Of a DNA stretch of 61,404 bases, positions 2,236 through 59,215 are shown piece after piece. Position numbers and translations under genes: made by a program. Source of the DNA: Chiloscyllium plagiosum. Its lineage: Eukaryota. Positions within the stretch are counted from its first letter, which is position 1; each line of letters starts with the position of its first letter. The notes under the pieces are model-generated. The model did not search any database and was not told the origin of the DNA. It saw nothing but the letters and a program-made list of their open reading frames with translations. Location: assembly GCF_004010195.1 (NCBI RefSeq), contig NC_057719.1, forward strand, positions 12,340,207 through 12,401,610, in the 5' to 3' direction.

Positions 2236-2684
2236 ATTCGGAGATGCCGGTGTTGGACTGGGGTGTACAAAGTTAAAAATCACACAATGCCAGGTTATAG
2301 TCCAACAGGTTTAATTGGAAGCACACTAGCTTTCGGAGCGATGCTCCTTCATCAGGTGATTGTGGAGGGCTCGATCGTAACACAGAATTTATAGCATAAA
2401 TTTGCAGTGTGATGTAACTGAAATTATACATTGAAGAATTGATTGTCTGTTAAGCCTTTCATCTGTTAGAATACAGTATTCTAACAGATGAAAGGCTTAA
2501 CAGACAATCAATTCTTCAATGTATAATTTCAGTTACATCACACTGCAAATTTATGCTATAAATTCTGTTACGATCGAGCCCTCCACAATCACCTGATGAA
2601 GGAGCATCGCTCCGAAAGCTAGTGTGCTTCCAATTAAACCTGTTGGACTATAACCTGGCGTTGTGTGATTTTTAACTTTGTATC
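2236..2684. mobile_element. Fold-back Penelope-like terminal-repeat insertion (inverted arms 2266-2474 / 2476-2682, extra ~30 nt tail on left)
   Basis: Near-perfect palindrome centred on A2475; CTATCCATG duplicated at 2227-2235 and 2685-2693; interrupts a minus-strand CR1 3' fragment. Confidence 0.85.
2590..2624 (+). ncRNA. Minimal type I hammerhead ribozyme motif (PLE family A); mirror copy on minus strand at 2324-2358
   Basis: CAC-CUGAUGA-A-GGAGC(AUC)GCUCC-GAA-AGCU-A^GUG: intact core, 5-bp stem II, 3-bp stem I, palindromic AGCU replacing stem III. Confidence 0.75.
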
Positions 2685-2929
2685 CTATCCATGCCTCTCA
2701 TAATTTTGTAAACCTCTATAAAGGTCACCCCTCAGCCTCCGACGCTGCAGGGAAAACAGCACTAGCCTGTTCTGCCTCTCCCTGTAGCTCAGATCCACCA
2801 ACCCTGAATTTATAAACTAACATGGAGTAACCGAAGTATTTGAAGGCATGTGGAGATATGGGGAGGGCAGGACAAGAAGAAATATTAGAGATGTCAGATT
2901 TATAGGATGCAGATAAAGTAGTCATAAAC

Positions 2930-5900
2930 AGGCAGTACTGAACCTGGTTATAATCTTCAAGTTTTCATTTTGTATTTTGATAGCTTTATGAATTTTATTA
3001 ACGCAATGAGGACCGGGGTGTTAAAACAAAAGTGGGTAGCTGAACGCCAACAAAGTTATTCAACATCGTGGAGGCGGGGTGCCTGCTCTAATCCATGCTA
3101 CGAAAGAGACCGACAGCTGTTGAGCCAGCCATGACACACTACAGTCAAGTGCTGTGAACAAAACATCCAATAGACAAGGGCCCGGAAGGCGGGAACTCAA
3201 CTGCTCCCGAATTTGGTTTTTCTTTTCTGTAACGTTCAAAACGTGGTTTCAAACAGTTTCAGAGTACCTCCAGGGAACATCACCCAAACCGCGCAATCCA
3301 AGTCCCACCCGATATGAAGAAAAGGACGTGAGAATCAAAACAGCTCGAAAACAAAGATTAACTCAAAAACATAAACAAGGCTAAATAATAAAGTTCTAGA
3401 TCATCCCCACCCACTTCTCCCGAATTACTCACGATTTTTAAAAAGCAAATTAGGACATATTTAAATTCGAGCATATTTTAACCGATAGAGTCCATTTATT
3501 TTTGGAAAAACAGCACAATGACTGCTGAATTACATTATTATCCATAAAGAATATGTATTGCACAAATACTAATTAAATGCAAGTTTATGTAACCATTTAA
3601 CTGTACACTATTGCAATAGCACGTCAAAAAAACCCAGCAAAAGTGCACACTTTAATGCAATCTAAGACTACAAAGTTACATTAACTAATCTCTTGTTAAG
3701 ACAGCACCAGAAAATATATTTCGTCAAAACAGCTTATACAAGCACCCAAATATTAGGCTTAACGCATAGCAATAGTTTCAACTCCATGCTAGGATTTTCA
3801 AAATATAAAACGGTGAGCTCTGAAGCATGATCATTAATAGAATTAAAATATATTAATTTTCTTGCATATGACAAATGCATTTAAAATATTAGGATTGATT
3901 GTACACAGGCGGGTCTCAAACAAGCCTGTTTTTTTAAATCAAAGGGAGGATTAAATTATTACAATAGAATAAATATCTTGCAATTAAAGTGAATCAACAC
4001 TGCAATTAGTAAGTCCAAGTACGTGTACAAGACTCGTGTTTTTGAGTGCATTTACCTCCTTCCAAAAACAAACGATAGTGAAGGCGAAAGACACTCCCCT
4101 AAACGTGTCGAATGCCAAAATACAGGCCCCAATTCCTCCTTCAAAACCCCACGTCCGTTAGAAAAAGCTGTGTTCCACTTACCAAATGATTATAAATCCC
4201 TCCTCGAGATTCTCCTGAGCTGAACTGTAAATTTATCCAAGATGAGGAAGATAAATAAAAAGAGCTCAAGTGTAGGAAGGCTCTTTCTTTGGTCTTCACT
4301 AAGAAGTGCTCACTTAGCAACAGTTGTCCCAATAATGATACAATAAACACTATATATATGTATGATTTCTTCTGTCGTGTCCCGCGTGCTTTTTATCTCT
4401 CCTCTCGCTCCCCTCCTCGCTTACAAAGCTGGAGGTGAAAATAAATTAATCTTCATGTGCACAAACTTAAAAGAGGATGGTTGGTTTCTCTCGTTTAATC
4501 TCCCACTGAATCAGAAAGCTTTGAAAAATGCAGCAGAATGATTTATTATTTTTTTCCAATTAAAAAAAGGTAAGCTATCAGCTAGAGTAAATGTGGGAAC
4601 CTTTACGCTGCTGCTCGTCTTTTCCCTCACACAAAAAAATCTAACAACCGGTTGCAACCAGTTCTTACTGGGAGATTCCATCTTCATGTAGACATCCGGG
4701 AAAAGACGGAAACACACGAACAGCCACCGAAACCTTCCCCCTTTCAGCCTGTTCATTTTAAGGAATAAAATTCTACCTACTTTTTAAATCAACGTTTGGA
4801 TGATTCATTGATTTTCTTTATCTCTTTCTCCCACCCCCGAATGTGATCTCAGTTATATTTGGAGGGTTTTTTCTACATCTCCTGCCATGTGAAAATACAT
4901 GAATTGCACCTCTTGTAATACGAATGTTTTTTTTTAAATTAAATAAATGGACTGCAATCTTCATCTATTTGCACTTGGACACGACCGATTCTGAGGTGAC
5001 GGGAGTTAATTTGTTATTTTTCAGTCACAGGTTTTAGTTACATTTTTACCGCGCTGCTGGCGGATACATTGTAACAAACGCCGCAGAATTATCAATGCCA
5101 TAGATACAGGCTGCGTTTTTCCAGGTCATTCTTGCTTTGGGGCAATTGCTTGGCTATATTTAATATACGGTACATATATGTATATCTGGATTGTTCCAGT
5201 TCCATATCGCTTGTTCCACCCGCAGAATCTATATAAGGTAATCACCAATCACGCACCCCCAACTCTCTTCGAATCTTACTCATGAATGGGAACTCACGTC
5301 ACGAATCATAAAATCATTTTATAATGTAACGCCTTTTTTGTAAGGGACTGGGTGAGGGATTTGACCCAATGCAAGCCTTTCTCCCTTTTTTTTTCTTATT
5401 TGCTTATTACCCTCTTCCCAAGCATGTATTTACGATTAGTCGGAAGTTTGTGCAGAGCGCGACATGAACGCAGTTCTCTTGCTTCCTTCTCGCATACTGC
5501 AGTGAAAAAGGAGGGTTTGGCGTGGCTATTTTGTGTGGATGTGACTGGATATTGCCCGAACAACACGCGAGGCACGTCCCCCTCCCCTCCCCTCCCGTCC
5601 CCGAAGATACCAACCGTCCGGGATTGTTCTGGGGTGTCTAGGAATTAGGGATTGATCTCCTGCTGACTGTTGCGAACAAACATATAAGTCGAGAACCAAA
5701 ATGTGTGTGTGTTTTCCCATTTTCCTTAGAATTGTTTTGTTCATTCGTTACAAAAATATCAGAGATGACTGGGTGGGGTTGTTGAGGTCAGCAAGAAGTA
5801 AGCACTGCAGACGCCCTCTCATCGCATGTTGTAGACCTTGGGTGAAAATATTGCTTTAAAACTAACTCCAGTTTTTACCATTTTGAGTATTCAGTTTCTT

Positions 5901-6220
5901 TTAAAACAATTTGTTGCTGTACCACTGAATTTTTTAAACGCACGTAGTCAAGAACAATGTTTTCTTTATGTATACAGCAAAGCTACCCCTCAGTGGAAAT
6001 TAAATCAGATCTAACTGCAAATTCAATTTTATATAGAATATATTTTGTACTTAATCCATGGCGTTCTGATGTTGATTTTTGTGTTTTCAATTATAATCAA
6101 AATTAGCTAGCCAATGAGATTTTCTTCCCAATTAGAATGTTGAAGGTCTGTCACCTGTGGGAAAGAAACACATTTTGGTGCCATTTTTTAAAAAAAGCTT
6201 GCCCTCTGCTCCTTGAACTT
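2930..6220 (-). promoter_or_regulatory. TE-free CpG-richer island: probable promoter/5' non-coding exon of an unidentified minus-strand gene
   Basis: No recognisable repeats over ~3.3 kb; many CpGs; CArG/TATA-like CTATATAAGG 5229-5238, CCAAT 5245-5249, CRE-like TCACGTCA 5294-5301; minus-strand TTG|GTAAGT donor at 4182-4177. Confidence 0.5.
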
Positions 6221-6224
6221 GTGC

Positions 6225-7360: not shown

Positions 7361-7670
7361 ACTTCAGACCATGAACTCTGTCCTCCAATTTATTTTTCTG
7401 CCCCCCCGCCCCACACACAGTGACCCAAAATATTCACTCTGATTTCTCTTCACAGGTCTGCTGAGCTTTTCCAACAGCTTCTGTTTTTTTATCTAGTGTT
7501 CTTTCTTTTGCTTTGACCTATATTCGGCTGTTAACACATATTCTGTAGGTACTGAACTCCTCTATAACCCCATTACCACCCCCTTTTTTGCCTTTTTTTC
7601 CTATGACACATAATCTCATGACTTCCTTCCCCTCGATAATCTTCCCTTGACCTTGCTTTCTGTTCCACTT

Positions 7671-8068
7671 GGCAAAAGTGGATCCTGCAGATGCCGGAGA
7701 TTAGAGTCAAGGTTAGAGTGGTGCTGAAAAAGGACAGCAGGTCAGGCAGCATCCGAGGAGCAGGAAAATCAACATTTTGGGCAAAAACCCTTCATCAGGA
7801 ATGAAGCTGGGAACCTTGGGGGTGGAGAGACAGGTCATGAGGACGGTGCTGAGCTGGAAGGTTGGGACTGTGGTAAGGTGGGGGGAGGGGAAATGAGGAA
7901 ACTAGTGAAGTCCACATTGATGCCCTGGGGTTGAAGGGTCCCGAGGTGGAAGATGAGGCATTCTTCCTCCAGGCATCGGGTAGTAAGGAAGTGGCAGTGG
8001 AGAAGGCCCAGGACCTGCATGTCCTTGGCAGAGTGGGAGGGGGAGTTCAAATGTTCGGCCACGGGGTG
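7671..8068 (-). mobile_element. Penelope-like element 3' fragment: GIY-YIG endonuclease C-terminus plus family B terminal repeat with decayed hammerhead
   Basis: ORF 7835..8062 AEHLNSPSHS...RCLEEECLIFHLGTLQPQGINVDF resembles the PLE endonuclease C-terminal signature; directly followed by cctgatgaagggtttttgcccaaaatgtt. Confidence 0.8.
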
Positions 8069-8195
8069 GGCTCCATCTTTTTCTACAGTATAAAACCCAT
8101 CACTGGTCCAATTCTCTCTTCAGTTTACAAGAGGAGTAATATTGTAATTGAAGTGTTAACTCTTTCTTCTCAGAAGCTGCAAATATGCTGAGTTT

Positions 8196-8670: not shown

Positions 8671-9239
8671 GATTTTCTTCATCACTTTCTGTTTTTCTGT
8701 TAGATCACCAACATCTGCAGTGTTTTGCTTTTGCTCACAACAGGTGATCAAGTAATTATTCCACCAATAAATGTGAGGCTTTGCTGTGTGAAAACCAGCT
8801 GTCGTGGTTCATACTTTACTGAAGTTACTACACTCCATTGGATATACGTGCTTTGGGCTCTCCTCAAGTTAAGAATGGTGCTATGTTAAATGCAAGCATT
8901 TGTTTTTATCCTGTTGACTTAGCTCATGAATTGATTGCATATATCTCCTTAATTCACTGGTCAGATCTTGAGTATAGGGGTTGGGACGTCATGTTGAGGT
9001 TGTCTCGGACGTTGGTGAGGTCTCTTCTGGAGTACTGTGTTCAGTTCCGGTTGCTCTACCCTAAGAATGATATTTACAAGGATGTTGCCAGGAATGGACT
9101 GGAAAGACATTTGGATAAGTTCATGAATGGGCCAAGTTTTGGCAGGTGGGACTAGTATAGATTTGGAACGTGGTCGGCATGGACTGGTTGGACTGAAGCA
9201 TCTGTTTCCATGATGTATTACTGCATGACTCTATAAAGC

Positions 9240-9667: not shown

Positions 9668-11346
9668 ATAGAGTCATAGAGTTGTACAGCATGGAAACCA
9701 ACCCTTTGGTCCAACCCGTCAATGCTGACCAGATATCCCAACCCAATCTAGTCCCACCTGCCAGCACCCGGCCCATATCCCTCCAAACCCTTACTATTCA
9801 TATACCCATCCAAATGCCTCTTAAATGTTGTAATTGTACCAGCCTCCACCACATCCTCTGGCAGCTCATTCCATACACGTATCACCCTCTGCGTGAAAAA
9901 GTTGCCCCTTAGGTCTCTTTTATATCTTTCCCCTCTCACCCTAAACCTATATGCCCTATAGTTCTGGACTCCCCGACCCCAGGGAAAAAACTTTGCCTAT
10001 TTATCCTATCTATGCCCCTCATAATTTTTTTAACCTCTATAAGGTCACCCTTCAGCCTCTGACGCTCCAGGGAAAGCACCCCCAGCCTGTTCAGCCTCTC
10101 CCTATAGCTCAGATCCTCCAAAGCTGGCAACATCCTTGTAAATCGTTTCTGAACCCTTTCAAGTTTCACAACATCTTTCCGATAGGAAGGAGACCAGAAT
10201 TGCATGCAATATTCAAACAGTGGCCTAACCAATTGTCCTGTACAGCCGCAACATGACTTCCCAACTCCTGTACTCAATACTCTGACTAATAAAGGAAGGC
10301 ATACCAAACGCCTTCTTGACTATCCTATCTACCTGCAACTCCACTTTCAAGGAGCTATGAACCAGCACTCCAAGGTCTCTTTGTTCAGCAACACTCCCTA
10401 GGACCTTACCATTAAGTGTATAAGTCCTGCTAAGATTTGCTTTCCCAAAATGCAGCACCTCGCATTTATCTCATTTAAACTCCATCTGCCACTTCTCAGC
10501 CCATTGGCCCATCTGGTCCAGATCCTGTTGTAACCTGAGGTAACTCTCTTCGCTAGGAGAAAGTGGGGACTGCAGATGCTGGGGATCAGAGCTTAAAAAT
10601 GTGTTGCTGGAAAAGTGCAGCAGGTCAGGCAGCATCAAAGGAATAGGAGAATCGATGTTTCAGGCATAAGCCCTTCTTCAGGAATGAGGAGGGTGTGCCA
10701 AGCAGGCTAAGATAAAAAGTAGGGACACCTCCATTTTTGGTGTACCTCTTATGCTCGCATCCAAATCATTTATGTAAATGACAAAAAGTAGAGGGCCCAG
10801 CACTGATTCTTGTGGCACTCCACTGGCCACAGGTCTCCAGTCTGAAAAACAACCCTCCACCATCACCCTCTGTCTTCTACTTTTGAGCCAGTTCTGTATC
10901 CAAATGGCTAGTTCTCCCTGTATTCCATGAGATCTAACCTTGCTAATCAGTCTCCCTTAGGGAACCTTATCGAACACCTTACTGAAGTCCATATAGATCA
11001 CATCTACTGCTCTGCCCTCATCAATCTTCTTTGTTACTTCTTCAAAAAACTCAATCAAGTTTGTGAGACATGATTTCCCATGCATAAAGCCATGTTGACT
11101 ATCCCAAATCAGTCCTTGCCTTTCCAAATACACGTACATCCTGTCCCTCAGGATTCCCTCCAATAACTTGCCAACCACCGAGGTCAGGCTCACCGGTATA
11201 TAGTTCCCTGGCTTGTCTTTACCGCCCTTCTTAAACAGTGGCATCACATTAGCCAACCTCCAGTCTTCTGGCACCTCACCTGTGACTATCGATGATACAA
11301 ATATCTCAGCAAGAGGCCCAGCAATCACTTCTCTAGCTTCCCACAG
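9668..11346 (-). mobile_element. 5'-truncated CR1 LINE nested in the DNA transposon, interrupted by a PLE repeat at ~10556-10725
   Basis: RT/C-terminal fragments in ORFs 10957..11328, 10678..10866, 9936..10307, 9748..9939; ctctatgactctatg tail on minus strand. Confidence 0.88.
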
Positions 11347-14800: not shown

Positions 14801-16135
14801 CCCTCCCCACACCTTACTAGTTTAAATCCTCCCAAGCAGCTCGAGCAAATCTCCCGGCCAGTACATTAGTCACCTTCCAAGTGTTCCATTTCCACTTGTA
14901 TCCAAGAGTCCCATTTCTTCTGTACTAAGTCCTTAAAAGGTTTATCCAGTGGCTGCACCATGTCCGTAAGGCCTCCAGGAATCATTGCAAAGTCAGCATT
15001 GCAGGTGCAATCCGTCCCTCTTGTACAGGTCACTTCTACTCCAGAAGAGATTCCAATGATCCAAAAATGTGAATCCTTCTCCCATACACCAGCTCCTCAG
15101 CCACGCATTCACCTGCTCTATCCTCCTATTCCTACCCTCACTACCTCGTAGCATGGAGTAATCAAGATATTACTACTCTTGAGGACCTCCTTTTTAAGTT
15201 TCTGTCTAATGCTCTGTAATCTCCCTTCAGAATCTCATCCTTTTCCATTCCTATGTCATTGGTTCCAATGTGGACAATGACCTCCTGCTGGCCCCTCTCC
15301 CCCTTGAAAACATTCTGCACCCTCTGTGAGACATCCTTGATCCTGGCACCAGAGAGGCAACACACCATTCTGATTTTTCGCTGCTGGTGAAACTTCTGTC
15401 TGTGCCTCAGACGAGAGAGTCTCCTAACACAATTGATCTCTTGGAACCCGACGTACCCCTCATTGTATTAGAGCCAGTCTCGATACCAGAAACATGGCTG
15501 TTCGGGCTACATTCCCCTGAGAATCCATCACTCCCTACATTTTCCAGCATACTGTTTGAAACAGGGATAGCCACAGAAGACTCCTGCACTACCTGTCTAC
15601 CTCTCTTACCTTTCCTGGAGTTAGCCCATCAATGTGACTCCATCTGCGACTTTTCTCCCTTCTTATAATTGCTCCCCTTTTTTATTTCTCCTTGCTCTTG
15701 TAAATTCCTCATTGCCTCTACCGTCTCTCCAATTGATCCATTCGATCTGACAGGATTCGCAACCATTAGCATTTATCGCAGATATAATTCTCAGTAAGAC
15801 TTAAACCCTTCCTGAACTCCCACATATCACTCTACTAAGGACCATTTTTGCTTTTTCTAATCTACAGACCCAGAAAATAGTACCGTCTTATTCCTCTACA
15901 AACACTGCTCCAGGCTAACTTATACTTATGGCTTATATTTTTAAGTTTAATCAAGGGACACATCTTAAATAAAACAAAGAACCCACTCTACTCACTATTG
16001 TAGATTTACAGCAAGGCTATACTTAAAACTATTCACTAATCTGTTTCTGTGCTGACCTCTCACAAACAGGTATCTCCAAGATCAGTTGTGAATTTCACTG
16101 CTTGTTAATTTTCCTAGACACACTCTGATGAAAAT
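11838..16135 (-). mobile_element. Near full-length (~4.3 kb) CR1/HER1-type LINE, decayed; ORF1 SGNH esterase-like, ORF2 APE endonuclease + RT
   Basis: ORF1 motifs IVLGDSLV, VHIGTNDIG; ORF2 FNARGL, GDFNFPNIDW, NYRPVSL, QHGF, FVDDTKIG; CR1 3' end at ~11845; TGTTA at 11833-11837 and 16136-16140 as probable TSD. Confidence 0.9.
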
Positions 16136-16522
16136 TGTTACCCTCTGTGAAGCTTTTTTCCCCTTCTTGCATCCAACTGTCCCATTTATTCTGTACTAAG
16201 TCCTTAAAAGGTTTATTGATGCTAACATCCAATGGCTGCACCATGCCAGTAAGGCCTCCAGGAATCATTGCAAAGTCATCATTGTTAGCTTGAAGTTCAC
16301 TGATAACTCTTTTCACTCTGTGCGATCCAAACATATCTGAAACTAGTAAGCTTTTTTTCCTTTCTAAGTCCACCTGGTCACATATTCCAAATCTCCCTCA
16401 TCCAAGTCTTGCAGCCTGTTTCATGGATGAGGAAGACACTGCCTTTTGGAAATTTCTGTTTGGGCAGAGTTTTCTGCTTATAAATCACCATAGACCTTTT
16501 TTAGTTCCATCTGCCATACAAC

Positions 16523-16887
16523 TTACAGATTACTTACAGATTACAGATTACTTACAGATTACAGATTACTTACAGATTACTTACAGTGTGGAAACAGGCC
16601 CTTCGGCCCAACAAGTCCACACCGACCCGCCGAAGCGTAACCCACCCAGACCCATTCTCCTACATTTACCCCTTCACCTAACACTACGGGCAATTTAGCA
16701 TGGCCAATTCACCTAACCCCTGCACATTTTTGGATTGTGGGAGGAAACCGGAGCACCCGGAGGAAACCCACGCAGACACGGGGAGAATGTGCAAACTCCA
16801 CACAGAGAATCGCCTGAGGCGGGAATTGAACCCGGGTCTCTGGCGCTGTGAAGCAGCAGTGCTAACCACTGTGCTACCGTGCCGCCC
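16523..16887 (-). mobile_element. Full-length HE1-type tRNA-derived V-SINE with (TAAGTAATCTG)-like repeat tail
   Basis: GGGCGGCACGGTAGCACAGTGGTTAGCAC head, GGGTTCAATTCCC B box; TSD ATACAAC at 16516-16522 and 16888-16894; removal restores transposase VLGCMADGT. Confidence 0.88.
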
Positions 16888-17881
16888 ATACAACCAAGTA
16901 CAGACAGTGAATTGACTCCATTCATGGCCAGTAGTCTTAACCAAAACTGTTTTTGCTCCAATCTTGTCCACAGTTCTGTTCCCTGGTATATCAAAGTTCA
17001 GTAGGGTTTCATTCATATTGCATGAGAGCCTGTACCCATTTTCTTCCGACTTCTGATTACAAATCAATGGAACCCAATTAACATTATTAAGATATGCTGG
17101 TAGACATTGGACAATCTTGGTTTTCTGTCTGAGAACTAAATCATACCTTTTCATAAACCTAATGTACCATCCAGCACTGGCTTTGAAATCACTGAATTCA
17201 TCTTTTCTTGCTTCGTTTTTGGCATGTATTTTTATACATTGTCAAGTTACTATGCTTCTGTTCTGACAACACTGAATTACCCAGTCAGCAATCTTTTCTT
17301 CCAGTTGTAGCCTTTTGTTCAGCTTTCCTTGGTTGGCATAGTTCTGTTTTGGTATAGCCTTTAGACTTTTCTCCTCCAATTTCAAACAAGTTTTTCAGAA
17401 ATACAGAATTCCCTTGCAGCTACGCTATTTTTGTTCTTCTCTGCAACTTCAATAACTTTTAGTTTAAACTATGCTGTACACTTGTTTCTTCGTGATGTCA
17501 TTTTGTCAGAAACATTTGCGGGAGTTTTACAATAAGTTCAGAGCACAACTGTACACGACACCCACTTCTAAGAAACTGAGGCAACAGCGGGAAGACAAGG
17601 TCAAGAGTTGCCATAAGGTACCGTAGATATTTGCATGCACAGGTCAAATATATGCATGTAAATATATAATTATCAACATTCAATTTAATGAATTGAAAAT
17701 CACGTTGCACAAATATATATTGGTGTGCATAATATGTGATGACACAGGTATTGCATTTGAATCAAAATTGTGCAAATCATGCCCTTTAAGGTTGCATATA
17801 TAGTCAGGAAGAGACTCCCGAAAAGCTAGGGTCCACTTATACACGAGGTATATGAAAAATGCCAGATATTTTGCCCAAAAA

Positions 17882-19055
17882 TAAGGACAAACCAGGGAAT
17901 TATAGACCAATGAGCATGATGTCGGTGGTGGGCAAGTTGTTGGAGGGAATCCTGAGGGACAGGATGTACATGTATCTGGAAAGGCAAGGACTAATTAGGG
18001 AAAGTCAACATGGCTTTGTGCATAGGAAATCATGTCTCACAAACTTGATTGAGTTTTTTGAAGAAGTAACGAAGGGGATTGATGAGGGCAGAGCGGTAAA
18101 CGTGATCTTTATGGATTTCAATAAGGCGTTCGACAAGGTTCCCCATGTGAAACTGGTTAGCAAGGTTAGATCTCATGGAATACAGGGAGAACTAGCCACT
18201 TGCAAACAGAACTAGCTCAAAGGTAGAAGACAGACGGTGGTGGTGGAGGGTTGTTTTTCAGACTGGAGGCCTGTGACTAGTGGAGTGCCACAAGGATTGG
18301 GCTGGGTCCACTACTTCTTGTCATTTATATAAATGATTTGGATGTGAGCAGAAGAGGTATAATTAATAAGTTTGCAGATGACACTAAAATTGGAGGTGTA
18401 GCGGACAGCGAAGAAGGTTTCCTCAGATTACAACAGGATCTTGATCTATTGGGCCAATGGGCTGAGGAGTGACAGATCGAGTTTAATTTAGATAAATGCG
18501 AGGTGTTGCATTTTGAGAAAGCAAATCTTAGCAGGACTTATGCACTTAATGATAAGGTCCTAGGGAGTATTGCTGAACAAAGAGACCTTGGAGTGCTGGT
18601 TCATAGCTCCTTGAAAGTAGAGTCGCAGGTAGATAGGATAGTGAAGTAGGCGTTTGGTATGCTTTCCTTTATTGGTCAGAGTATTGAGTACAGGAGTTGG
18701 GAGGTCATGTTGTGGCTGTACAGGACGTTGGTTAGGCCACTTTTGGAACATTGCATGTAATTCTGGTCTCCTTCCTATCGGAAAGATGTTGTGAAACTTG
18801 AAAGGGTTCAGAAAAGATTTATAAGGACGTTGCTAGGATTGAAGAGTTACAAATCACACAACACCAAGTTATAGTCCAACAGGTTTCATTGGAAGCACTA
18901 TCTTTCGGAGCGCCACTCCTTCATCAGGTGGTTGTGGAGTGATATGGGCTGGGTGCTCGCAGGGGGACTAGATTGGGTTGGGATATTTGATTGGCATGGA
19001 TGACTTGGATGAAAGGGTCTGTTTCCATGCTGTACATTTCTACGACTCTATGACT
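17882..19055 (+). mobile_element. 5'-truncated CR1 LINE inside the right end of the DNA transposon, interrupted by a PLE fragment (~18845-18939)
   Basis: ORF 17859..18215 RT motifs (NYRP, QHGF, DFNKAFDKV); CR1 3' end with gactctatgact tail. Confidence 0.85.
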
Positions 19056-21093: not shown

Positions 21094-21417
21094 ATATCCA
21101 TAAAAGAAGGGGTCCTTATAAAATTAACTTTGATGCAACCAACGAAAGGGCAGATGAATAACCAAGATGAATCAGTTCACCCTGCCTCATCAATTTTTGA
21201 TATGGAGGTGCCAGTGTTGGACTGGGGTGTTCACTTGAGAATGTAACTTTTAAAAAGTTCTGGGATTTACATATGAAGGAACTGAAACCAACATGCCCAT
21301 TCTAAAAGATGAAAGACTTAACAAACAATCCAGGTCATTTTCAATATATAATTACAGTTACATCACACTGTAAATTTTGCTATAAATTCTGTGTCTTATG
21401 ATCTTATAGTCCACAAC

Positions 21418-21452
21418 TACCTGATGAAGGAGTAGCGCTCCGAAAGCTAGTG
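21418..21452 (+). ncRNA. Minimal hammerhead motif (PLE family A) within repeat ~21204-21490
   Basis: UAC-CUGAUGA-A-GGAGU(AGC)GCUCC-GAA-AGCU-A^GUG. Confidence 0.68.
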
Positions 21453-43552: not shown

Positions 43553-43742
43553 ATAAAATAATAAAAGCAAATTACTGCGGATGCTGGAGTCTGAAACCAA
43601 AAAAGAAAATGCTGGCAAATCTCAGCAGTTCTGAGATTCAAAGCTTTGACAAAGGGTCAGTTAGACTCGAAACGTCAGCTCTTTTCTCTCCTTACAGATG
43701 CTGCCAGACCTGCTGAGATTTTCCAGCATCTTCTTTGGTTTC
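43553..43742. mobile_element. Fold-back PLE-like mini-insertion with variant hammerhead (UUGACAA...GAAACGUC)
   Basis: 14-bp TSD ACCTCTCCAACCTT at 43539-43552 and 43743-43756; inverted arms. Confidence 0.78.
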
Positions 43743-46572: not shown

Positions 46573-46712
46573 GCGGTTCTGAAGAAGGGTCACTAGACCC
46601 AAAACGTTAACCCTGCTTTCTCCCCACAGATGCTGCCAGATCTGCTGAGTTTTTCTTGCAATTTCTGATTTTGTTTCTGATCTTCCAGCATCTGCAGTCC
46701 TTTGTTTTTTTT
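46573..46712 (+). mobile_element. PLE-like family C terminal repeat with hammerhead carrying a G12-to-A change
   Basis: GGUU-CUGAAGA-A-GGGUC(ACUA)GACCC-AAA-ACGU-U-AACC at 46575-46612; TSD TGTG(A/T)GGTTAACT at 46560-46572 / 46713-46725. Confidence 0.72.
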
Positions 46713-47242
46713 TGTGTGGTTAACTCCACTACCCAATATTCGTGGACTTCTTGTCAAGCCTGAGACTGTACTTGTAACTTCCCCTTCCTTACCTCAAACT
46801 CCTCTCAGTTGCTCACTTGCAGCATTAAGATTGGCTTTGCTTAAAGCAGAGTTGACGTCTCCATAATTCCCAGCTGTCCTCAACTCCTATGAAGTGTACA
46901 AAAGAAGTCCTTACACCCTCCGTGCTCCTGTTGTCTCTCTGTGAAGTGAACCACTGCTCTTCCACTTTGTAACTTGAGAGAGAGTACCATGTGAATTCTC
47001 GACCTTCTGAGCCCCAAGGGGACACTGGTGATTCCGTTGTTAAATGAGACCTAAATGGACTTTGACAGTAAATAAGGTGTGGCTTCAGGTATTCTCATGG
47101 TTATGACATTCATGATTTACTGTAACCTTGGAATCGTTTACTCTCTCTTGTCTGTCCTGTATTGTTGTTCTACCACCAGGTATCATAGCACTGTCATGTG
47201 TTTAGATTTAACTGCTGATGTTCTGACCTGCTTTATTTACAG

Positions 47243-47378
47243 TTGCTGGTACAGTTTGTCCAGAATACTTTCATACCATTGGGAAAAGGGTTTGAGGAGC
47301 CAGAACAGAGTGCTGGCCAATGTCTGCCTCCAAGCAAAGGCAGTGATAATACATTAGATAACCAAGCTCCAGTCTCTG
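47243..47378 (+). CDS. ZNF410: ZNF410 coding exon 2 (LLVQFVQNTFIPLGKGFEEPEQ...QAPVS)
   Basis: tttatttacag acceptor, G|gtaagt donor, 136 nt, phase 0 to 1; matches recalled ZNF410 LLVQFVQNTSIPLG. Confidence 0.92.
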
Positions 47379-49040
47379 GTAAGTGAAACAGAGTCTCTGC
47401 AATAAAGCAAACTCCAGTGAATACTGAAAATCTAAAATAAAAGCAGAAAGTGGTGGAGAAACTCAGCAGGTCTGGGAGCATCTGAGGAGAGAGAGAGACA
47501 ATTAACGTTTTGAGTCCAGTTTGACTCTTCTTCTGAAGAACTGCGGACACTAAATCAGAACCAAAAACAAGTTGCTAGAAAAGCTCAGCAGGTCTGGCAA
47601 CAGCTGTGAAGAGAAACCAAAGTTAACATTTCGGGTCCGGCGACCCTTCGAGTTCAATCAAGGGATGGGTCATCGGACCGGAAACGTTAACTTTGCTTAA
47701 CCTGCTGAGCTTTTCCAGCAACTTCTGTTTTGACTCTTCTTGTGAACTGATGAGCTTATTAAAAGAAAAAGAAGTTACTTCAGAAACCTCTGCAAAGTGG
47801 GAATGTGAGAGACTCCATAATTTTGCAGGGTGGATTTAAATATTTTTCCATGAAACTTTCCTTGTTACAGTGATGGGCAATGGGTTTGCGTTTCATTTTT
47901 GAGGTGTGCTGTTGGCTTTGAGCCGTTGTTTTCTAAGTTCCAAACCAACAAAGTGCCAAGCATCCCTCCTCTTACATTTTCTCCTGTGGTCTCTGAACAA
48001 TAAGGTCAGTTTGTGGGAAATGATAAGGCAGAAATGTAAAGGAGACGATTAACAAGTGAAAGAAGCCGTGATCAAGGGGAAAAAAGTGACATGAGGGGAA
48101 AGCTATGTGGTCTAAGGCTTGAAAGAAATGTAAAGACGATTGGAAGTTGAATGTTTAATCTCTGTTCGACACCATTTGAATCTAGGTGATGAAGCTCTCT
48201 ACATCTAGCCATCTCCCCTCTAATTTCTCAGTTGAGTTGCAGTTAGGCTGACATATTATGACAGGGATCAGTGATTTGGATTCTGCTGTTGGAAGCTTCG
48301 CAATTGCTACTGTTCAAGTGTAAGATCAAAAAGAGCATGGAGCAGCATATTTAGGGGCCAAGAGCTTTTATCTTTTCTGATGTGTGCACTTATAGTGGGA
48401 GTTGTTAAAGATACCCAAATATTTACCTTAAGGTAATGTTTTTTTAAAAAAAACATACTTTTTTTTAAGTTCCTAATTGAGAAGAACTGCAAAGTGTTTC
48501 GGGATCGATAACAGCAAAAGAAATTGAGCGACAAGACACCACGTTGACTCAATTCAAAATGTGAGGAGCTGGGACAAGCCGCAGAGCAGATGGTAGGCTG
48601 GCTGAAACAACAAAGTGAGAGGGCGTCAATGGCTAAAGTAGTTACTGAAACTGATTACAAGTAGGAAACTATATTTTACAGGGACCAAAGAATGAGAAGT
48701 GCAATTTTAAAATTTGCAGGCGATGTGGAGCTGCATCTTTTTTTCCCATTTGTGGGATGTAAGCCTTGCTGGCTGGCCTAGCACTTATTGCATATCCAAA
48801 AATGTCTGTGAGCTGAGTGGCTTGTTGGGTTATTTCAAATGTCTGCTCCATAACTGTGGGTCTGGAGTCACATGTCGGCCAGACCAGGTAAGGACAGCAG
48901 ATTTCCTTCCGTAAAGTACGTTAGTGAATCGGGTGGGTTTTACCGACAATTAGCTATGATATGTGGTCGCCATTAGACTAGCTTTTAAATTCCAGATTTG
49001 TATTAAATTTATATTCCAGCACCTACTGTTGTGGGATTTT

Positions 49041-49237: not shown

Positions 49238-49614
49238 ATTGTGGGATTCTAACTCATTTTCCCAGAACACTAGCCTGGGGTTCTGAATTACTCATCCAGT
49301 GACATTGCCACTACCTCTGAGTGACTGTGACAAAATACAGGAAAATATTACATTATGGAATGTTCTTGTTATTAGCAAATTAATTTAAATATAGGCAAGT
49401 ACAAGGGCTAAACTTTGCTGGGTGAATACGATCATATGGATTTTGGAAAGTCAGCATCAAGGTGTAATGGATTTAGGATTACAGACTAACAAATCAGTAT
49501 TTGTAGTCAGCATCTGCAGTCCTTGTTTTTACCTAGTTGGGTTAATAAGCTTTATTTTAAAAATGTAAACTAAAAACCGTTTCCTTCCTGGAGGGAAACA
49601 GAAAACACATTGAG

Positions 49615-49857
49615 CTCTGTTTAGAGCATACTTGGGGTACTCTGAACAACCTGTCCTCTGTTAGAATAAATGCAAAAATAATACCAGAAGTGAGAGACTG
49701 TTAACTTCGGAAAAGATTAAGCAGAGTGGGGCTCTCTGTTTAGAGCATACTTGGGGTACTCTGAACAACCTGTCCTCTGTTGTTAGAATAAATGCAAAAA
49801 TAATACCAGAAGTGAGAGACTGTTACCTTCGGAAAAGATTAAGCAGGCTGGGGCTCT
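49615..49857. repeat. Tandem duplication, unit ~119-122 bp, two copies
   Basis: ctctgtttagagcatacttggggtactc... starts at 49615 and 49734, few differences. Confidence 0.9.
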
Positions 49858-51782
49858 TAGAAATAAGACTGAAATGTGACAAAAAGCCTCAAGGGTATCA
49901 AAGGGTTGATGTAAAGATGGTTTCCCTTGCAGTGAAGGCCATGCTTTGGGGCCACAAATGTTAGGTAGTCTGTAATAAAGCCAATAGGCCATTGAATGGG
50001 AGCCTCTTTACCCAGACGATAATTGAAAGATGGAACTCGCTGCCACAAGGGTAGTTGAGGTGAACAGTATTGGACATGTTCCAGGGAAGCTGGATAAACA
50101 AATAAAGGATAAAGGACTGGAAGGACACAATGGTGTTGGAAAGGATCTGCAGTATTTGTGTCACAAACATGTGCCTTGCTATCTAACCCCTCTGTGTTTA
50201 GCACTCTGTGTCTCCAATCACAATCAGTTTATTCTTAGCCTGCTTCATTGGCAGGGTGTGAAGTCTGGCTCTGCTCTTTGTTAATATAAAGGTCTGATTG
50301 TTTCAGCTGGTCACTGTGTAGTTTCTAAACTCACTTGCATTATAAGATCACAACAAACACATGCAGCTGGCCTGGAAATGATTTTACTTTGAAACAGATA
50401 TTTATTATATCTTCCCTTTTAATCATCAAATGCTTGAGATGTTGGGGACATGTAAACAGGCAGTCAGGCAATTAGTAAAGTGCTAATTTTTTTTGAATTG
50501 AGAAAATATTGTAATGTTCAACTGCACCCACCCCCACAGTGATCTTTCTCTGTTTTTTTAAAGGATGTTGATTGTTACTGGGTGCTTCAGCCTTCTGCTA
50601 TACTAACCTTGTAAACCTTGACAATGATCCTGGGCAGGCAGGTTAACTGTTGGTTGCATGATGCTCACAAACAGATTTTGTACTGATGCTGGTAATTGGG
50701 GGACAGGAAGTCGGGGTTTGCTGGACCACCATCAAGAGTGGGATCCTGAGCTACTTTTGTGTTTCCAATACTTGCTCCTCCCTGGCCTTGCACACAATTA
50801 CAAATGGGAGAAATTAATGACCTGTATCAGGCATTGGCATGGAGTGCTGGTCTGTCAAGAACCAACTCTGCTCCCAGATAGTGTTCCCATTTAACCCCTT
50901 TTATGGCACCTCAGATTCAAACACAAAATCCAGCTGATTGGGCTCCCACTTAAATGGAGTTGTCAAACTGAGGGACTGTCGCTGTCTTGCAAATGCTGTT
51001 TTGCAGAAGGTGTTGGGGAATTCACCACATTTTACTGGCTGGTATTTATCCCACCATCAACATCACAAAGAAACAAGGCTGCAATAGGGTTAAGGTCTGG
51101 TCATGTCCCTACCATGAGCCAGGAGCCTGGGTTCAGTCTCACCTTCAGTGGTGTGTAGTACTATCTCTGAATAGATTAGTTAGGAAATATCCTGAAAGGT
51201 CTGCTCTAAAGGCTCTTATGATACAGTGGTAGTGTGCTTATCTCTGAGCCAGGGACCCAGGTTCAAGTCCCACCTGTTCCAGTGGTGAGTACTAGCGTCT
51301 CTAAATAGGTTGATCAGAAAGTTCTGCTGTCTGCATTTTGCAAGAAAATCCATAGAGAGCGTATTGTTTTCTTTAGAGAATTTAAGTTCTCAATCATCTT
51401 TACACTATTTGAGTTTCTTAAAGCAGGGACAAGAACAGAGGTTCCTGGAAAAGCTGAGTGGTTCTGGCAGCATCTGTGAAGGGGAATCAAAGTTAACATT
51501 TTGGGTCTGGTGATCCTTCCTCTGCTGCCAGACCTCCTGAGCTTTTCCAGAAACCTCTATTTTTGTTTTTGTTTCTGATCTACAGCATTCAGTGTTCTTT
51601 TGGTTTTCATAAAGTAGGGCATTGGCCTATCCTCAACTTGTGTAATTCTTTTATTCTTTTTATAGAATAGTGTATTTCCTCTTTGATTTCTATACTGTCG
51701 AGTACTTAATTGACCTTGGGGTGCTTTGCAAAGTCCCGAGGCTTTGAAGGGCACTATATAAATGGAGCATGTGGTTTTCCAG

Positions 51783-51962
51783 GTGAACCCTCTGCCTCTG
51801 ACCCTGGGCTGCCAATTCAAGCTGAGGGACCTGATGCCAGAAGTGTGACTGCTGCCAATGAAAGCGTGGATGGGAGTACTCCATGGTATCTCCGTGTACA
51901 GGAATTAGCCCATGACAGTCTTGTGGCTGCAACTAGAGCAGAACTGGTGAAGGATTCCAAAG
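51783..51962 (+). CDS. ZNF410: ZNF410 coding exon (GEPSASD...STPWYLRVQELAHDSLVAATRAELVKDSK)
   Basis: ttttccag acceptor, AG|gtactg donor, 180 nt, phase 1 to 1; contains the conserved PWxLRVQELAHDSLxAATRA motif (visible in ORF 51710..51997). Confidence 0.92.
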
Positions 51963-52962
51963 GTACTGACAGCTTTATGTCCTTTTTTGTTTTTTGATGT
52001 ATGCAAGTTCTTAAACGCTTCCTGCGGTGCAGTTGGCTGCCCAAGAATTATATCTTCTGAGCACCATGCTTGCATTTTCAAATTGCATCATGAGCAAAAC
52101 AAAAAGTTTCATTTCTAACATCCTGTCCTCTCTTGTTCAGCTCCTGTTTCTGCCATCACTCTGATCTTTCACCTCCTCTTTATCCTGAAGATGCCGACCG
52201 GCTGCAGTTGTGGGTTACTCCCAAGTATCCTCTCTGAAGGGGACAGGCAGCCCTTGGTGTCTGGAGCCGGGAGGATATCGCTGCTGTGGCCTGCCCCTTG
52301 GTTGCTCACTGTCAGTGGGCTCCCCTCCCCCCGCCCCCCCACACACCTTTTTGTACTTTTGGGAGGATCACCTCGATTTTATTTTTCAGTGGCACGACTT
52401 TTGTTTCTCTTAAATGCACGGGAACAAAAAATTGCTGGAGCAACTCAGCAGGTCTGGCAGCATCTGTGGAGAGAAAACAGAGTTAACGTTTTGAGACCAG
52501 TGACCTCTTGTTTTATTTTACCTTTGTTTCTCTTCTTCTGAATTCCCCCCCTCCCACACCGACCTCTCCCCAAAAATAGTATGGAAAGCAAAAGGGAAGA
52601 ACTTGCATCTCTGTCCCATTTTTGCCACCTCTGAACATCTCAACTTGCTTGACAACCAAGGAATTTCCTGTATTTCCCTACCCTTCACAAACTGGTCCAG
52701 AGGCATTGGAACAAATTGTTGTGACATTCCCTGATCTTCCCTTCTTCAAAGATTTGGAATAGGAACCACTCCTGCAAAGGAGGGCGAGAAGTAGATTGGC
52801 CATGTTCCATCGTATGGACTGGACTGGTGAAAATAGACAGAAGTGGGTACCACACAAACCCCAAGGACCATTTGTTTTGAAGAAGTGTAGCAACACTTGT
52901 TCCTCCCAAGGACGATCCAGATGCCGGAGTAAATAATCACATCCCATTACTAACCATGATGA

Positions 52963-53672: not shown

Positions 53673-53819
53673 GGAGAAAGTGAGGACTGCGGATGCTGGA
53701 GATCAGAGCTGAAAACGTGTTGCTGGAAAAGCGCAGCAGGTCAGGCAGCAGCCTGAATAAGGGCTCATGCCCGAAACGTCGATTCTCCTGCTCCTTGGAT
53801 GCTGCCTGGCCTGCTGCGC
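53673..53819. mobile_element. Fold-back PLE family B mini-insertion with hammerhead carrying a G8-to-U change
   Basis: 14-bp TSD TTAACCAGTGCCAT at 53659-53672 and 53820-53833; CUGAAUA...GAAACGUC at 53753-53780. Confidence 0.82.
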
Positions 53820-54008
53820 TTAACCAGTGCCATCCATATAAATGTTGGTAGATGGTGGCCTGTGTTGTTAATTTGTGCTGACACAACTGCAGTAGAAGAA
53901 GAAGCAGAAATTGTATTTCCGACAGGTAGTGGCCAGTTGAAATCTGCTTGCTGCCTGAGCACCGGTTTTTCTCGGCTGCCTTTTGTGATGTGTGATTTTC
54001 GCTTTCAG

Positions 54009-54174
54009 CAGAGCCCACCAATGACAGTAAAGCATCCAGCTGTAAGGAAGATTTAACTCCTGAGCTGCAGCACACCACTCCACGAAGTGAGAAGACCCTG
54101 AAGTGCTGTTATGACGGATGTAGCAGGACCTTCCTCTGGCATGCGCACCTGAAATATCACCTGAAAACACACAA
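54009..54174 (+). CDS. ZNF410: ZNF410 coding exon with C2H2 finger 1 (EKTLKCCYDGCSRTFLWHAHLKYHLKTH)
   Basis: tttcag acceptor (CAGCAG tandem), AA|gtgagt donor, 166 nt, phase 1 to 2, open frame with C-x4-C-x12-H-x3-H. Confidence 0.93.
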
Positions 54175-54329
54175 GTGAGTTCAAAACCATATTTCATAAC
54201 CACATGCCTGCACTCTGTATTTGGTTGGCAGTGGGGCAAAAAGTTTTTCATTTTCGGGATTGCTTGATACTGAGACAGATCTAAAGATGCAAATGCAAAA
54301 CCAAACTGTGACACAGAAATTTGCAAACT

Positions 54330-57996: not shown

Positions 57997-58040
<44 letters not shown>

Positions 58041-58060
58041 CCCTCTCCCTCGCCTTCTCT
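57997..58060 (+). repeat. (CT)n microsatellite/pyrimidine tract next to a 6-N gap
   Basis: Direct reading; N at 58061-58066. Confidence 0.9.
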
Positions 58061-58127
58061 NNNNNNCCTACTCCACAACTGCATCTTTCTATTTCCTTCC
58101 ACCTGGTAAATCCTCCCTTCCCAAAAG

Positions 58128-58309
58128 GAATGATCGCTCCTTCACCTGCCCGAAGGAAGGATGCGGGAAGAGTTTCTATGTGCTCCAGAGGTTAAAGGTC
58201 CACATGAGGACACACAACGGAGAGAAGCCGTACATCTGTCCCGAAGCTGACTGTGCGAAGAAGTTTACAACAGCTGGCAACTTGAAGAACCACATGCGAA
58301 TTCACACTG
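58128..58309 (+). CDS. ZNF410: ZNF410 coding exon with C2H2 fingers 2-3 (NDRSFTCPKEGCGKSFYVLQRLKVHMRTHNGEKPYICPEADCAKKFTTAGNLKNHMRIHT)
   Basis: pyrimidine tract + aag acceptor, G|gtacag donor, 182 nt, phase 2 to 1; two C2H2 fingers with HNGEKP linker. Confidence 0.95.
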
Positions 58310-59178
58310 GTACAGACTGGCATTAGCGCGTGATGTCACTTTTTTTAATGATTCCCAGCAAAATTGAGTTTCCATTCAGGTTTTTTGATGGCACATGTCT
58401 CTGTGAGAGTGGTTGTTCACCAACTCTGTCTGAGTTGTTGATGGCATCGCTGAGAGCCAACTTGTACTTTCAGTTCAAGCTTTGTTTTAATAATAACAAA
58501 ACATAGTTTGAGATTGTAGAAGTTTGTCCTGTGGGAATGCAAGGGATGTTGGAGAATAGTCAACATGAAAAGAACACAAAATATTTCTGGGTCATCATTC
58601 ACCGCTCTTTGGAAGAACGTAACCTTTATCCCACTCTGTGTGGCAAACACAATCTGGGCCAAGGTTTATAAAGATTCGGTTACATGTAACGCACAATTGT
58701 AATGGGGGAACATGGTGGCATAGCCATGGGATGTGGGTTCAAACCTCTGTACAGCACCACATTGTTGTGTATCTGTAAAATATTCCTTACTGTCCTGTTC
58801 TGACACCATCGTCTTGATAAATGATCATTTCTCTACCTTAATTAGTTTGTACAGTTTTGGATTACTTATTACTTTCATTAGACCCTCGGCATGTGACTCT
58901 TCTACTTATCACGTTATTCCAGTCATTTAATTTATCTCCAGCACCACCTTATTTTAAGTTTTTTGTAATTATCTCTCTGCCTCATTTTATTAGATTACAG
59001 ATCTTCCCTTCACTTGTTATTCAGCTGTTGACACTTTACTCGCACTGTCTAACACCATTGGCCATGTGCAGAGATGTATTATTTGACACTCCACTCACAC
59101 CAGTTGTATGAAATTTTGATCGCTGCCCTCGATCTCACTGCCTTTAAATTCTCTGTCTGTTTGCTCTGCTCTCTCACT

Positions 59179-59215
59179 TCACCTGACGAAGGGGCTGCGC
59201 TCCGAAAATTTGTGA
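59179..59215 (+). ncRNA. Minimal hammerhead motif (PLE family A relative) in a ZNF410 intron, sense orientation
   Basis: UCAC-CUGACGA-A-GGGGC(UGC)GCUCC-GAA-AAUU-U^GUGA; followed by the family A ttggtctataacctggtgttgtgtga segment. Confidence 0.6.

Follow-up and report, generated by a model that had tools for sequence, protein, structure and literature searches.

Minimal hammerhead ribozyme motifs in short, probably Penelope-like insertions of a bamboo-shark genome

A 61,404-nt stretch of the genome of the bamboo shark Chiloscyllium plagiosum (the window) contains 19 minimal hammerhead motifs, six of them with an intact core. The motif combines a conserved core with a stem II that is paired and a stem I that is short; a palindromic tetramer takes the place of stem III. 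The motifs lie in short insertions flanked by target duplications. These insertions are likely 3' ends (pseudo-LTRs), truncated on the 5' side, of Neptune-type Penelope-like elements (PLEs) from at least two lineages, and the RNA of the parent elements is predicted to be cut only when motifs act as pairs. We give this reading a probability of about 0.88.

A first-pass annotation had described twelve motifs. Its six intact cores are all present where it placed them, each with CUGANGA, an extra A, a paired stem II, GAA, a palindrome, and H17, and its six altered copies (those starting at 7767, 10650, 18896, 43646, 46575, and 53752 in Table 1) were also located. Seven additional motifs are decayed or clipped at the 5' end. 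A single insertion carries both 2324-2358 and 2590-2624, one in each arm, and the six intact cores thus represent five events. Thirteen of the 19 motifs are damaged or clipped. All core letters (CUGANGA ... GAA A ... U H) are kept in eight, six of which also have a palindromic tetramer.

The extra A, located between A9 and G10.1, occurs in every copy, and the G10.1-C11.1 pair is G-C in 18 copies and G.U in one. Stem II differs in sequence among families A, B, and C and is paired in 88 of 89 cells across the 19 copies, a figure inflated by choosing copies partly for a recognisable stem II. The tetramer is palindromic in 13 copies, in the forms AGCU, ACGU, and AAUU; five of the six non-palindromic tetramers are a single CpG transition of ACGT. 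Stem I has 3-4 bp in family A, 2 bp followed by U.U and A-U in family B (3 bp in one copy), and 4 bp in the sole family C copy that keeps the 5' strand.

The motifs are real and far above chance. A strict descriptor requiring a 3-bp stem I gave six matches, against a mean of 0.06 (maximum 1) in 400 order-2 Markov sequences. The tetramer is palindromic in five of these six matches, and in none from all 400 controls. Likewise, an IUPAC core pattern, written post hoc with the motifs already seen, had seven exact matches and none in 100 dinucleotide shuffles. An Rfam search of the window gave no hammerhead among 13 matches at E<=1.

The likeness to hammerheads might be accidental, if one or two repeat families happened to carry the right words and multiplied them. 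Copy number is not independent evidence, there being only three or four family-level sequences, and the Rfam result fits an accident. However, families A and B/C have nothing in common outside the core; both retain CUGANGA-A and GAA, and their stem II, palindromic tetramer, and stem I are kept in different letters. A metagenome contig, L002, is identical to the family A motif at 33 of 36 letters while its flanks fail to align by BLAST. Finally, the position of the motif in the element is the published one. This cross-family pattern largely refutes an accident, which we find barely credible.

The first-pass annotation counted at least three families. Several repeat families are indeed present, but they form two lineages, A and B plus C, the latter two having a 3' domain in common (~70-75%). 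The covariation that it described is overstated: the pairs do differ among A, B, and C at stem I, stem II, and the tetramer, but across only those three or four family-level sequences. In family C, stem II shows a double change from G-C to A-U in three of eight copies; no copy of this family has an intact core. The UUC/GAA stem I, cited as covarying, is a minor variant. The family B norm is C-G, U-A, U.U, A-U, a 2-bp type found in three of the four copies that retain the 5' strand, and the copy at 27928-27963 fails a 3-bp stem I test for this reason. The GAA variant makes up 0.1-0.4% of contig depth and 11-14% of RNA reads. The GGUU/AACC stem I and the AAUU tetramer are present in one copy each, and the GGUU/AACC copy has lost G12.

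Damage to the motifs is mostly CpG decay, including that at G12 and the ACGU tetramer; the pattern is observed, and decay is its probable cause. In contigs aligned to one family B copy, the variation listed within the hammerhead span outside CpG sites falls at N7, at two positions of loop II, at the mismatched position in stem I, and, in one read direction only, at U4. These alignments comprise 41,815 and 38,472 contigs in two DNA runs. The genomic load is thus very large, as had been proposed: 19 motifs in 61 kb, and about 40,000 contig pieces per run matching family B.

Table 1. Insertions and hammerhead motifs in the window. Signed numbers are positions relative to the cut site; TD, target duplication.
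Family	Feature	Position	Strand	Remarks
A	one insertion, fold-back	2232-2682		two head-to-head arms, 98% identical, centre ~2475; host site a CR1-like LINE fragment; TD 9 bp, 2227-2235 / 2685-2693; ~34-nt tail on left arm, none on right
A	minimal hammerhead	2324-2358	-	intact core, AGCU; predicted cut after 2327
A	minimal hammerhead	2590-2624	+	intact core, AGCU; predicted cut after A2621
A	stub	18845-18939	-	hammerhead 18896-18930, boxes intact, AGAU non-palindromic
A	insertion	21198-21490	+	lone inverted tail 21198-21233, then forward end from -218; TD 11 bp, one mismatch
A	minimal hammerhead	21418-21452	+	intact core; predicted cut after 21449
A	divergent subfamily (~80%) stub	59141-59269	+	ZNF410 intron, sense to gene
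A	minimal hammerhead in 59141-59269	59179-59215	+	intact, AAUU, 4-bp stem I; predicted cut after 59211
B	5'-truncated PLE end	7670-8070	-	endonuclease tail, stop, 3' UTR, decayed hammerhead, tailed 3' domain
B	GIY-YIG endonuclease, C-terminal part	7877-8065	-	46/63 identical to P0001; in-frame stop 7835-7837
B	decayed minimal hammerhead	7767-7802	-	G12>A, tetramer AUGU
B	end with tail	10555-10725	-	hammerhead 10650-10685 with unaltered catalytic boxes; two CpG transitions private to this copy, one giving the tetramer ACAU and one in stem II
B	fold-back insertion	27657-27849	-	inverted piece 27754-27849 (+3 to +99, tailed), forward copy -30 to +61; tail on one arm only; TD 16 bp
B	minimal hammerhead	27715-27748	-	intact core, GUC cut triplet, minor GAA stem I; predicted cut after 27718
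B	solo stub	27875-27963	-	-31 to +57; TD 9 bp
B	minimal hammerhead in 27875-27963	27928-27963	-	intact core; stem I 2 bp + U.U + A-U
B	stub	37329-37451	-	clipped at -24, CUGANGA lost, tail present
B	fold-back without hammerhead	38327-38448		arms start at +3 and +31; tail on one arm only; TD 18 bp, one mismatch
B	fold-back, ZNF410 intron	53673-53827	+	hammerhead 53752-53784, G8>U; tail on one arm only; TD 12 bp
C	fold-back stub	20672-20860	+	hammerhead remnant 20737-20765 clipped at -24; inverted piece reaches +1 of cut site
C	fold-back stub	39511-39655	-	hammerhead remnant 39581-39615, G8>A, AUGU; tail on one arm only
C	fold-back stub	43553-43742	+	hammerhead remnant 43646-43680; tail on one arm only; TD 14 bp
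C	solo stub	46573-46712	+	hammerhead 46575-46612, stem I GGUU/AACC, G12>A; TD 13 bp, one mismatch
C	cluster, ZNF410 intron, antisense	47426-47740	-	inverted piece and two tandem stubs; hammerhead remnants 47621-47649 and 47500-47537
C	fold-back stub	51422-51600	-	hammerhead remnant 51491-51522
C	stub	52412-52522	-	hammerhead remnant 52481-52511; TD 12 bp

The evidence supports assignment to the minimal type I hammerheads of PLE terminal repeats, the class proposed at first pass. The proposed link through an endonuclease fragment holds for family B, in which an endonuclease tail lies 37 nt before the motif and is 73% identical to P0001; family A is tied to PLEs otherwise. P0001 is a whale-shark RT-GIY-YIG protein with a C-x4-C-x2-C linker, and its Pfam matches are to RT and GIY-YIG (E ~9e-5 each, at or below the cut-offs). 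By itself, the endonuclease fragment of the window matches no Pfam family, and the same holds for the reading frame of L002. A tblastn search of the window with seven proteins matched only 7877-8083; next to the A and C copies it revealed neither RT nor endonuclease.

Family A is linked to PLEs less directly, by the anatomy of its insertions in the window and by L002. In that contig the motif lies on the same strand, ~750 nt behind a frame with 39% identity to the linker and endonuclease of P0001. A Zn-finger-like C-x2-5-C-x2-C linker is present in P0001 and L002, and that part of the protein is absent from the window. Family C is probably a PLE family as well, judging only by the 3' domain that it has in common with B. 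Neptune is preferred to Nematis because only Neptune and Poseidon are reported to occur in vertebrates.

Target duplications of 8-18 bp were found in 12 of 20 insertions at a score of at least 8, with boundaries placed by eye, against 2.5% in a random-pair control. One-sided tails of 30-50 nt and inverted 5' pieces are seen across A, B, and C insertions. In contigs from outside the window, nine opposite-strand joints occur among the 15 listed of 34. The window holds no full-length element.

The process by which such insertions arise may be as follows. The element carries the motif downstream of its endonuclease stop codon and ahead of its 3' end, as shown for B and as is likely for A and C. 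According to the literature, the tetramers of two motifs would base-pair in a transcript that is tandem or paired, forming two active cores that process the precursor RNA; this dimer processing may be weak, or helped by the element protein. The RT and the GIY-YIG nuclease would then copy the 3' end into staggered nicks. Copying would start at one of two sites 30-50 nt apart, giving copies with or without the tail, would stop early, and would often add an inverted piece. Once inserted, copies would decay, mainly at the CpG sites noted above. A lone dispersed copy has no cis partner, and so is most likely inert.

In all five intact copies tested, the double-hammerhead fold lies 5-14 kcal/mol above the dimer minimum, and also above two free monomers. 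These energies, from a model that ignores core tertiary contacts, suggest that short RNAs alone would not favour the double hammerhead. No pile-up of RNA ends was seen in one poly(A) single-cell RNA run, an ill-suited library in which 2,943 of 12,955,460 reads aligned; a second RNA run gave no aligned reads.

Some copies could instead be kept by the host as active intronic ribozymes. The best candidate is 59179-59215, which combines an intact motif and the longest stem I with an orientation sense to ZNF410; in addition, family sequences occur in poly(A) RNA reads, in both directions. Yet this copy has neither a stem III nor a cis partner, and the mapped ZNF410 introns hold six motifs, four of them antisense and five damaged. 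Since six intact motifs out of 19 are explicable by youth, selection is not needed. Host retention is accordingly very improbable.

The 5' edges of the insertions are not evenly spread. Twelve of 18 main copies of B and C have their 5' end at -24 to -37 relative to the cut site, a span of 14 nt, and a smaller pile of B/C edges lies at +1 to +4. Stem I begins at -31 with the A of an initiator-like TCATTCC.

Tentatively, the B/C edges might be a fossil map of the RNA ends that RT ran off, with -24 to -37 marking the transcription start and +1 to +4 marking ribozyme-cut templates; we think this somewhat unlikely. The mRNA would then start at the hammerhead, and priming inside the first pLTR would yield huge numbers of 90-135 nt ribozyme stubs. 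If true, the pile at +1 to +4 would be genomic evidence of in vivo cleavage by a minimal PLE hammerhead, not shown by RNA-seq so far. If inverted and truncated copies pile up at +1 across several families with different flanks, cleaved RNA would have been used as a germ-line template.

Another model treats the 90-135 nt unit of hammerhead and 3' domain as a non-autonomous element of its own, a non-LTR retrozyme or SINE-like stub. Tandem units would be transcribed, self-cleave, and circularise, and PLE protein would move them in trans. The clustered starts would fit such a unit, as would the tandem pair at 47426-47665 and tandem joints elsewhere from 10686 to 10555 (a 132-nt unit; five contigs, two runs). 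Moreover, Li et al. (10.64898/2026.07.22.740005) report non-LTR retrozymes, a class derived from pLTRs, in the sole cartilaginous fish sampled. But two B copies and all A copies extend further upstream (-40 to -299), one of them into the endonuclease, and some joints start at the end without a tail (10685 to 10596), contrary to what one fixed circle would produce. There is one tandem only among the 19 motifs. Non-LTR retrozymes are defined by tandems of at least two complete type I motifs, whereas both cores of this tandem are damaged. Published units also average 363 bp in the sampled chondrichthyan. An independent element is thus unlikely, and truncated PLE ends remain the preferred explanation.

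Still, the shark stubs resemble non-LTR retrozymes (10.64898/2026.07.22.740005): both are short non-coding units with a type I hammerhead, dispersed as monomers, that come from PLE pLTRs, a likely origin in the case of the shark. Among the retrozyme dimers of that study, one of nine tested cut in vitro. A further comparison is the Anolis element PAc, of the Poseidon clade (Frangieh et al. 2024, PMC11167929). Its RT start sites lie 111-118 nt into the ORF with the cut site at 26, that is, at about +85 to +92, near the tailed ends of the shark insertions (+94 to +104). As in the shark elements, the hammerhead is near the element end; no RNA reads were found to end at the PAc cut site, just as no pile-up of ends was seen in the shark run. 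The PAc hammerhead was shown to cut with protein help and is dispensable for insertion in vitro; cleavage of the shark motifs is predicted.

Endonuclease-bearing PLEs have an optional 30-40 bp tail at one end and 8-10 bp target duplications (Arkhipova et al. 2013, PMC3846280; Craig et al. 2021, PMC8557442), and a C-x2-5-C-x2-C linker precedes GIY-YIG in Neptune and Nematis. The 5' truncation, adjacent inverted 5' pieces, and partial tandems of the window are as described there, but its units are only 90-450 bp long, with no full-length copy. The clustering of B/C 5' ends at the front edge of the hammerhead is not described for PLEs in the available text of these two papers. The latter calls the in vivo role of PLE hammerheads unclear; with so many short insertions in one genome, that question can be put statistically.

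The closest precedent is the minimal hammerhead in the pLTRs of metazoan PLEs, including fish Neptune, Poseidon, and Xena (Cervera and de la Pena 2014, PMC4209133). Those motifs likewise have a type I core without a real stem III, an extra base before stem II, G10.1-C11.1, a palindromic 15.2-16.2 region, and a short stem I, and each genome holds several consensus families of them. In length (2 bp), the family B stem I matches the Drosophila virilis variant. The published motifs too are mostly single and dispersed, with pairs 100-700 bp apart on opposite strands. That work reported thousands per genome (~4,000 in coelacanth, ~9,000 in Xenopus) and a genome-wide scatter of solo motifs in fishes, coelacanth, and Xenopus. 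The shark load looks larger, with some 40,000 contig pieces for one family. The absence of an Rfam hammerhead match despite tens of thousands of distinct pieces of one family indicates that standard RNA-family annotation misses the motif. The available text of PMC4209133 names no cartilaginous fish, though its supplementary alignments may hold shark examples. The kind has been known since 2014 and is ordinary here apart from its abundance; a known class of minimal hammerheads is thereby extended to the bamboo-shark genome.

A strict descriptor of the minimal hammerhead ribozyme (CUGANGA, stem II of at least 3 bp, GAAA, U-H and stem I of at least 3 bp) finds six motifs in the window, compared with 0.06 expected from 400 Markov controls. 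Five of these carry a palindromic tetramer, a combination seen in none of the 400 controls, and the core pattern matches seven times in the window compared with zero in 100 shuffles. With self-comparison and a fuzzy search of the window the total rises to 19 motifs, in each of which at least stem II survives. An intact core together with a palindromic tetramer is found in six of the 19, two being the arms of a single insertion, and these are exactly the six intact cores recorded by the first-pass annotation.

Because MAFFT set family A out of register with families B and C, a script was used to tabulate the base pairs of the motifs aligned on their structure. Stem II pairs in 88 of 89 cells across the 19 motifs, an A stands between position 9 and stem II in every one, and the tetramer is palindromic in 13. 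G12 is missing in six motifs, always from a CpG, and CpG transitions of ACGT account for five tetramers. Rfam gives 13 matches on the window at E<=1, with no hammerhead among them. The Rfam matches to mir-552 and mir-3910 at 2427-2523 were rejected, as they lie under the gathering scores and merely echo the fold-back.

The motifs fall into three families of repeats. Family A has five, with stem II GGAGC/GCUCC, tetramer AGCU and stem I CAC/GUG; the copy at 59179-59215 represents a subfamily at about 80%, with tetramer AAUU. Family B has six, with stem II GGGC/GCCC. The eight motifs of family C, none with an intact core, have GGGUC/GACCC or GAGUC/GACUC. Families B and C share a 3' domain (approximately 70-75% alike) and are a single lineage, while family A has nothing in common with them outside the core.

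The family B copy at 10548-10732 served as the reference for reads and contigs from outside the window, taken from two DNA runs and two RNA runs. Contigs matching it at 80% likeness or more number 41,815 and 38,472 in the two DNA runs, figures that count contig pieces and not copy number. The usual family B stem I consists of C-G and U-A, followed by U.U and A-U. The GAA form, which had earlier been given as the stem I of this family, is not the norm, as it accounts for 0.4% and 0.1% of depth in the two contig sets and for 11-14% of the RNA reads. At the stem II and tetramer lesions of the reference copy, the intact letter holds 47-85% of depth, varying by run and site. Listed positions of the B hammerhead that vary at 10% or more include N7, two bases of loop II, the mismatch position in stem I, U4 and the CpG positions G12 and C17. 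At U4 the variation is one-sided, with 142 of 410 reads in one direction but 7 of 441 in the opposite one. In single outside contigs, only the hammerhead core of about 35-40 nt seems doubled head to tail (joints 10685 to 10651 and 10684 to 10645), which would be a ready-made dimer.

All three groups have the insertion anatomy of Penelope-like elements (PLEs), and inverted 5' pieces are present. Target duplications of 8-18 bp accompany 12 of 20 insertions, whose boundaries were set by eye, compared with 2.5% of random pairs. The tail, an optional 3' extension of 30-50 nt, is confined to one arm at 2232-2682 (+95 versus +61, counted from the predicted cut) and at 27657-27849 (+99 versus +61), and at 21198-21233 the inverted piece is just the tail. 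In all four window copies that were folded, and in both lineages, the tail is predicted to fold back onto the segment from about +18 to +28, with pairing sequences that are unrelated between A and B/C. The z-scores are -0.8 (2232-2326(-)), -2.6 (7670-7770(-)), -0.7 (37329-37426(-)) and -2.5 (46609-46712(+)), so that two of the four pass -2. This modelled fold could be a candidate structure for priming reverse transcription. A short family B piece (see table) is flanked on both sides by a 66-bp direct repeat whose two copies are 98% alike.

Coding sequence connects family B with PLEs. The frame 7835-8065(-) encodes the C-terminal end of a GIY-YIG endonuclease, with 46 of 63 residues identical to the whale-shark protein P0001, in which a C-x4-C-x2-C linker lies between weak Pfam matches to reverse transcriptase and GIY-YIG. 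From the endonuclease stop codon to the family B motif is 37 nt. Pfam yields no family for this endonuclease tail, and tblastn of the window yields no reverse transcriptase or endonuclease trace beside family A or C copies.

For family A, a metagenome scan finds two contigs with a motif 33/36 identical to its own. The L002 frame, for which Pfam gives no family, matches the linker and endonuclease region of P0001 at 39% identity and ends about 750 nt upstream of the motif on the same strand. L001 has reverse transcriptase sequence on the strand opposite to the motif. Because their flanks match nothing in the window by BLAST, these contigs represent a related element and not family A itself. A match of 33 of 36 letters between non-aligning flanks would point either to a motif held under strong constraint or to horizontal spread long ago. 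An ATTAAA word, a variant of the poly(A) signal, follows the family A cut site by 12-18 nt (2633-2639(+)), and in L002 an AATAAA is spaced similarly.

Relative to the predicted cut, the 18 main B/C copies start at -299, -71, -37, -35, -31, -31, -30, -30, -30, -28, -27, -24, -24, -24, -12, +3, +4 and +23. These starts were read by hand, one -31 being uncertain by 2 nt, and the count omits inverted arms, the weak fragments 8673-8732 and 49508-49530, and family A. Twelve of the 18 lie within -37 to -24, compared with 0 and 1 in the flanking windows of the same width (binomial 2e-5, the window being picked after the fact). The four family A insertions begin at -40, -70, -147 and -218, without clustering. 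Among the 15 of 34 joints listed from outside contigs, eight of nine opposite-strand joints pick up again between -21 and -32, with the strongest support for -31 and -32, and a tandem joint does so at -32. In both read directions RNA depth drops about fivefold from -20 to -50, an effect of copy structure and subfamily divergence rather than of transcription.

Such a boundary could arise at the 5' end of the RNA or where the enzyme stalls. The RNA 5' end is inferred to be the simpler cause, since a stalled enzyme would halt on the 3' side of the structure. In both B copies extending that far, the A of an initiator-like word falls on -31; this lends weak support to a start there, because 1.2% of positions carry such a word. 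Counting against the RNA 5' end is the D. virilis element, whose start is placed in PMC2377424 46 bp ahead of a 75-bp intron, the end of which meets stem I according to PMC4209133; the start is thus well upstream of stem I. For family B, a D. virilis-like splice acceptor at the -31 boundary was rejected, the two preceding letters being TC in both copies reaching there. Four pieces begin at +1 to +4 (20735, 27754, 29985 and 38393). Templates already cut, or an enzyme stalled at stem I, may explain them; with several others beginning near +20 to +31, they are only a hint.

The setting is vertebrate DNA with a G+C of 42%, crowded with CR1-like LINE pieces. The zinc-finger exon of ZNF410 has 61 of 62 residues the same as the Chiloscyllium plagiosum protein P0021, which marks the genome as bamboo-shark-like. 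The introns of this gene contain six hammerhead remnants, four of them antisense.

Features in the window and in two marine-metagenome contigs
Feature	Position	Strand	Remarks
ZNF410 coding exons (five)	47240-47383, ~51780-51964, ~54000-54175, 58126-58311, 59609-59701	+	tblastn
CR1-like LINE fragments	1543-2212 and throughout		65-92% alike, several nested or inverted; frequent targets of PLE stubs
Decayed pogo/Tigger-like transposase	16095-17241	-	Tc5 HTH match
tRNA-like SINE-type repeat	~16575-16888		splits the pogo/Tigger-like transposase
58-nt family B piece from +4	29928-29985		within 29863-30046; identical to part of the 27657-27849 insertion
Direct repeat, ~120 bp	49615-49857		95% identity
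L002, marine-metagenome PLE	frame 48-578, hammerhead 1330-1365		
L001, marine-metagenome PLE	42-341(-), hammerhead 966-1001		

Motifs of this type are described by Cervera and de la Pena (PMC4209133) as having no activity in monomeric form and weak activity in dimeric form, and Li et al. (bioRxiv 10.64898/2026.07.22.740005) report activity for one of nine dimers, with one species representing cartilaginous fishes. According to Frangieh et al. (PMC11167929), the hammerhead of an Anolis element cuts only with protein and is dispensable for insertion in vitro; reverse transcription there begins internally, at two sites bounding the tail. The five intact sequences tested here all accommodate a nested double-hammerhead fold, which is 5-14 kcal/mol less stable than the dimer minimum and never itself the minimum. 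The poly(A) single-cell RNA run X21, a library poorly suited to 5'-OH ends, gives 2,943 reads in both directions with no pile-up of read beginnings or ends. A second RNA run, X22, contributed no matching reads and weighs neither way. The single intact copy that lies sense to ZNF410, in one of its introns, lacks a partner in cis. It is concluded that the motifs probably served RNA processing of their parent elements, the dispersed copies being most likely passive relics.

The observation of the first-pass annotation is real and its classing of the motifs correct. A limited literature search found no paper on shark PLE hammerheads; where PMC6155905 mentions "shark", the word is merely a simile for the hammerhead shape. 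Repbase and Dfam may already contain families A, B and C. The architecture of the insertions is as described for PLEs in PMC3846280 and PMC8557442, and the motif is as described in PMC4209133, where such motifs are mostly single elements from truncated PLEs, with thousands in coelacanth and Xenopus. The motif class is thus already known from that account, and the shark families are a further instance of it.
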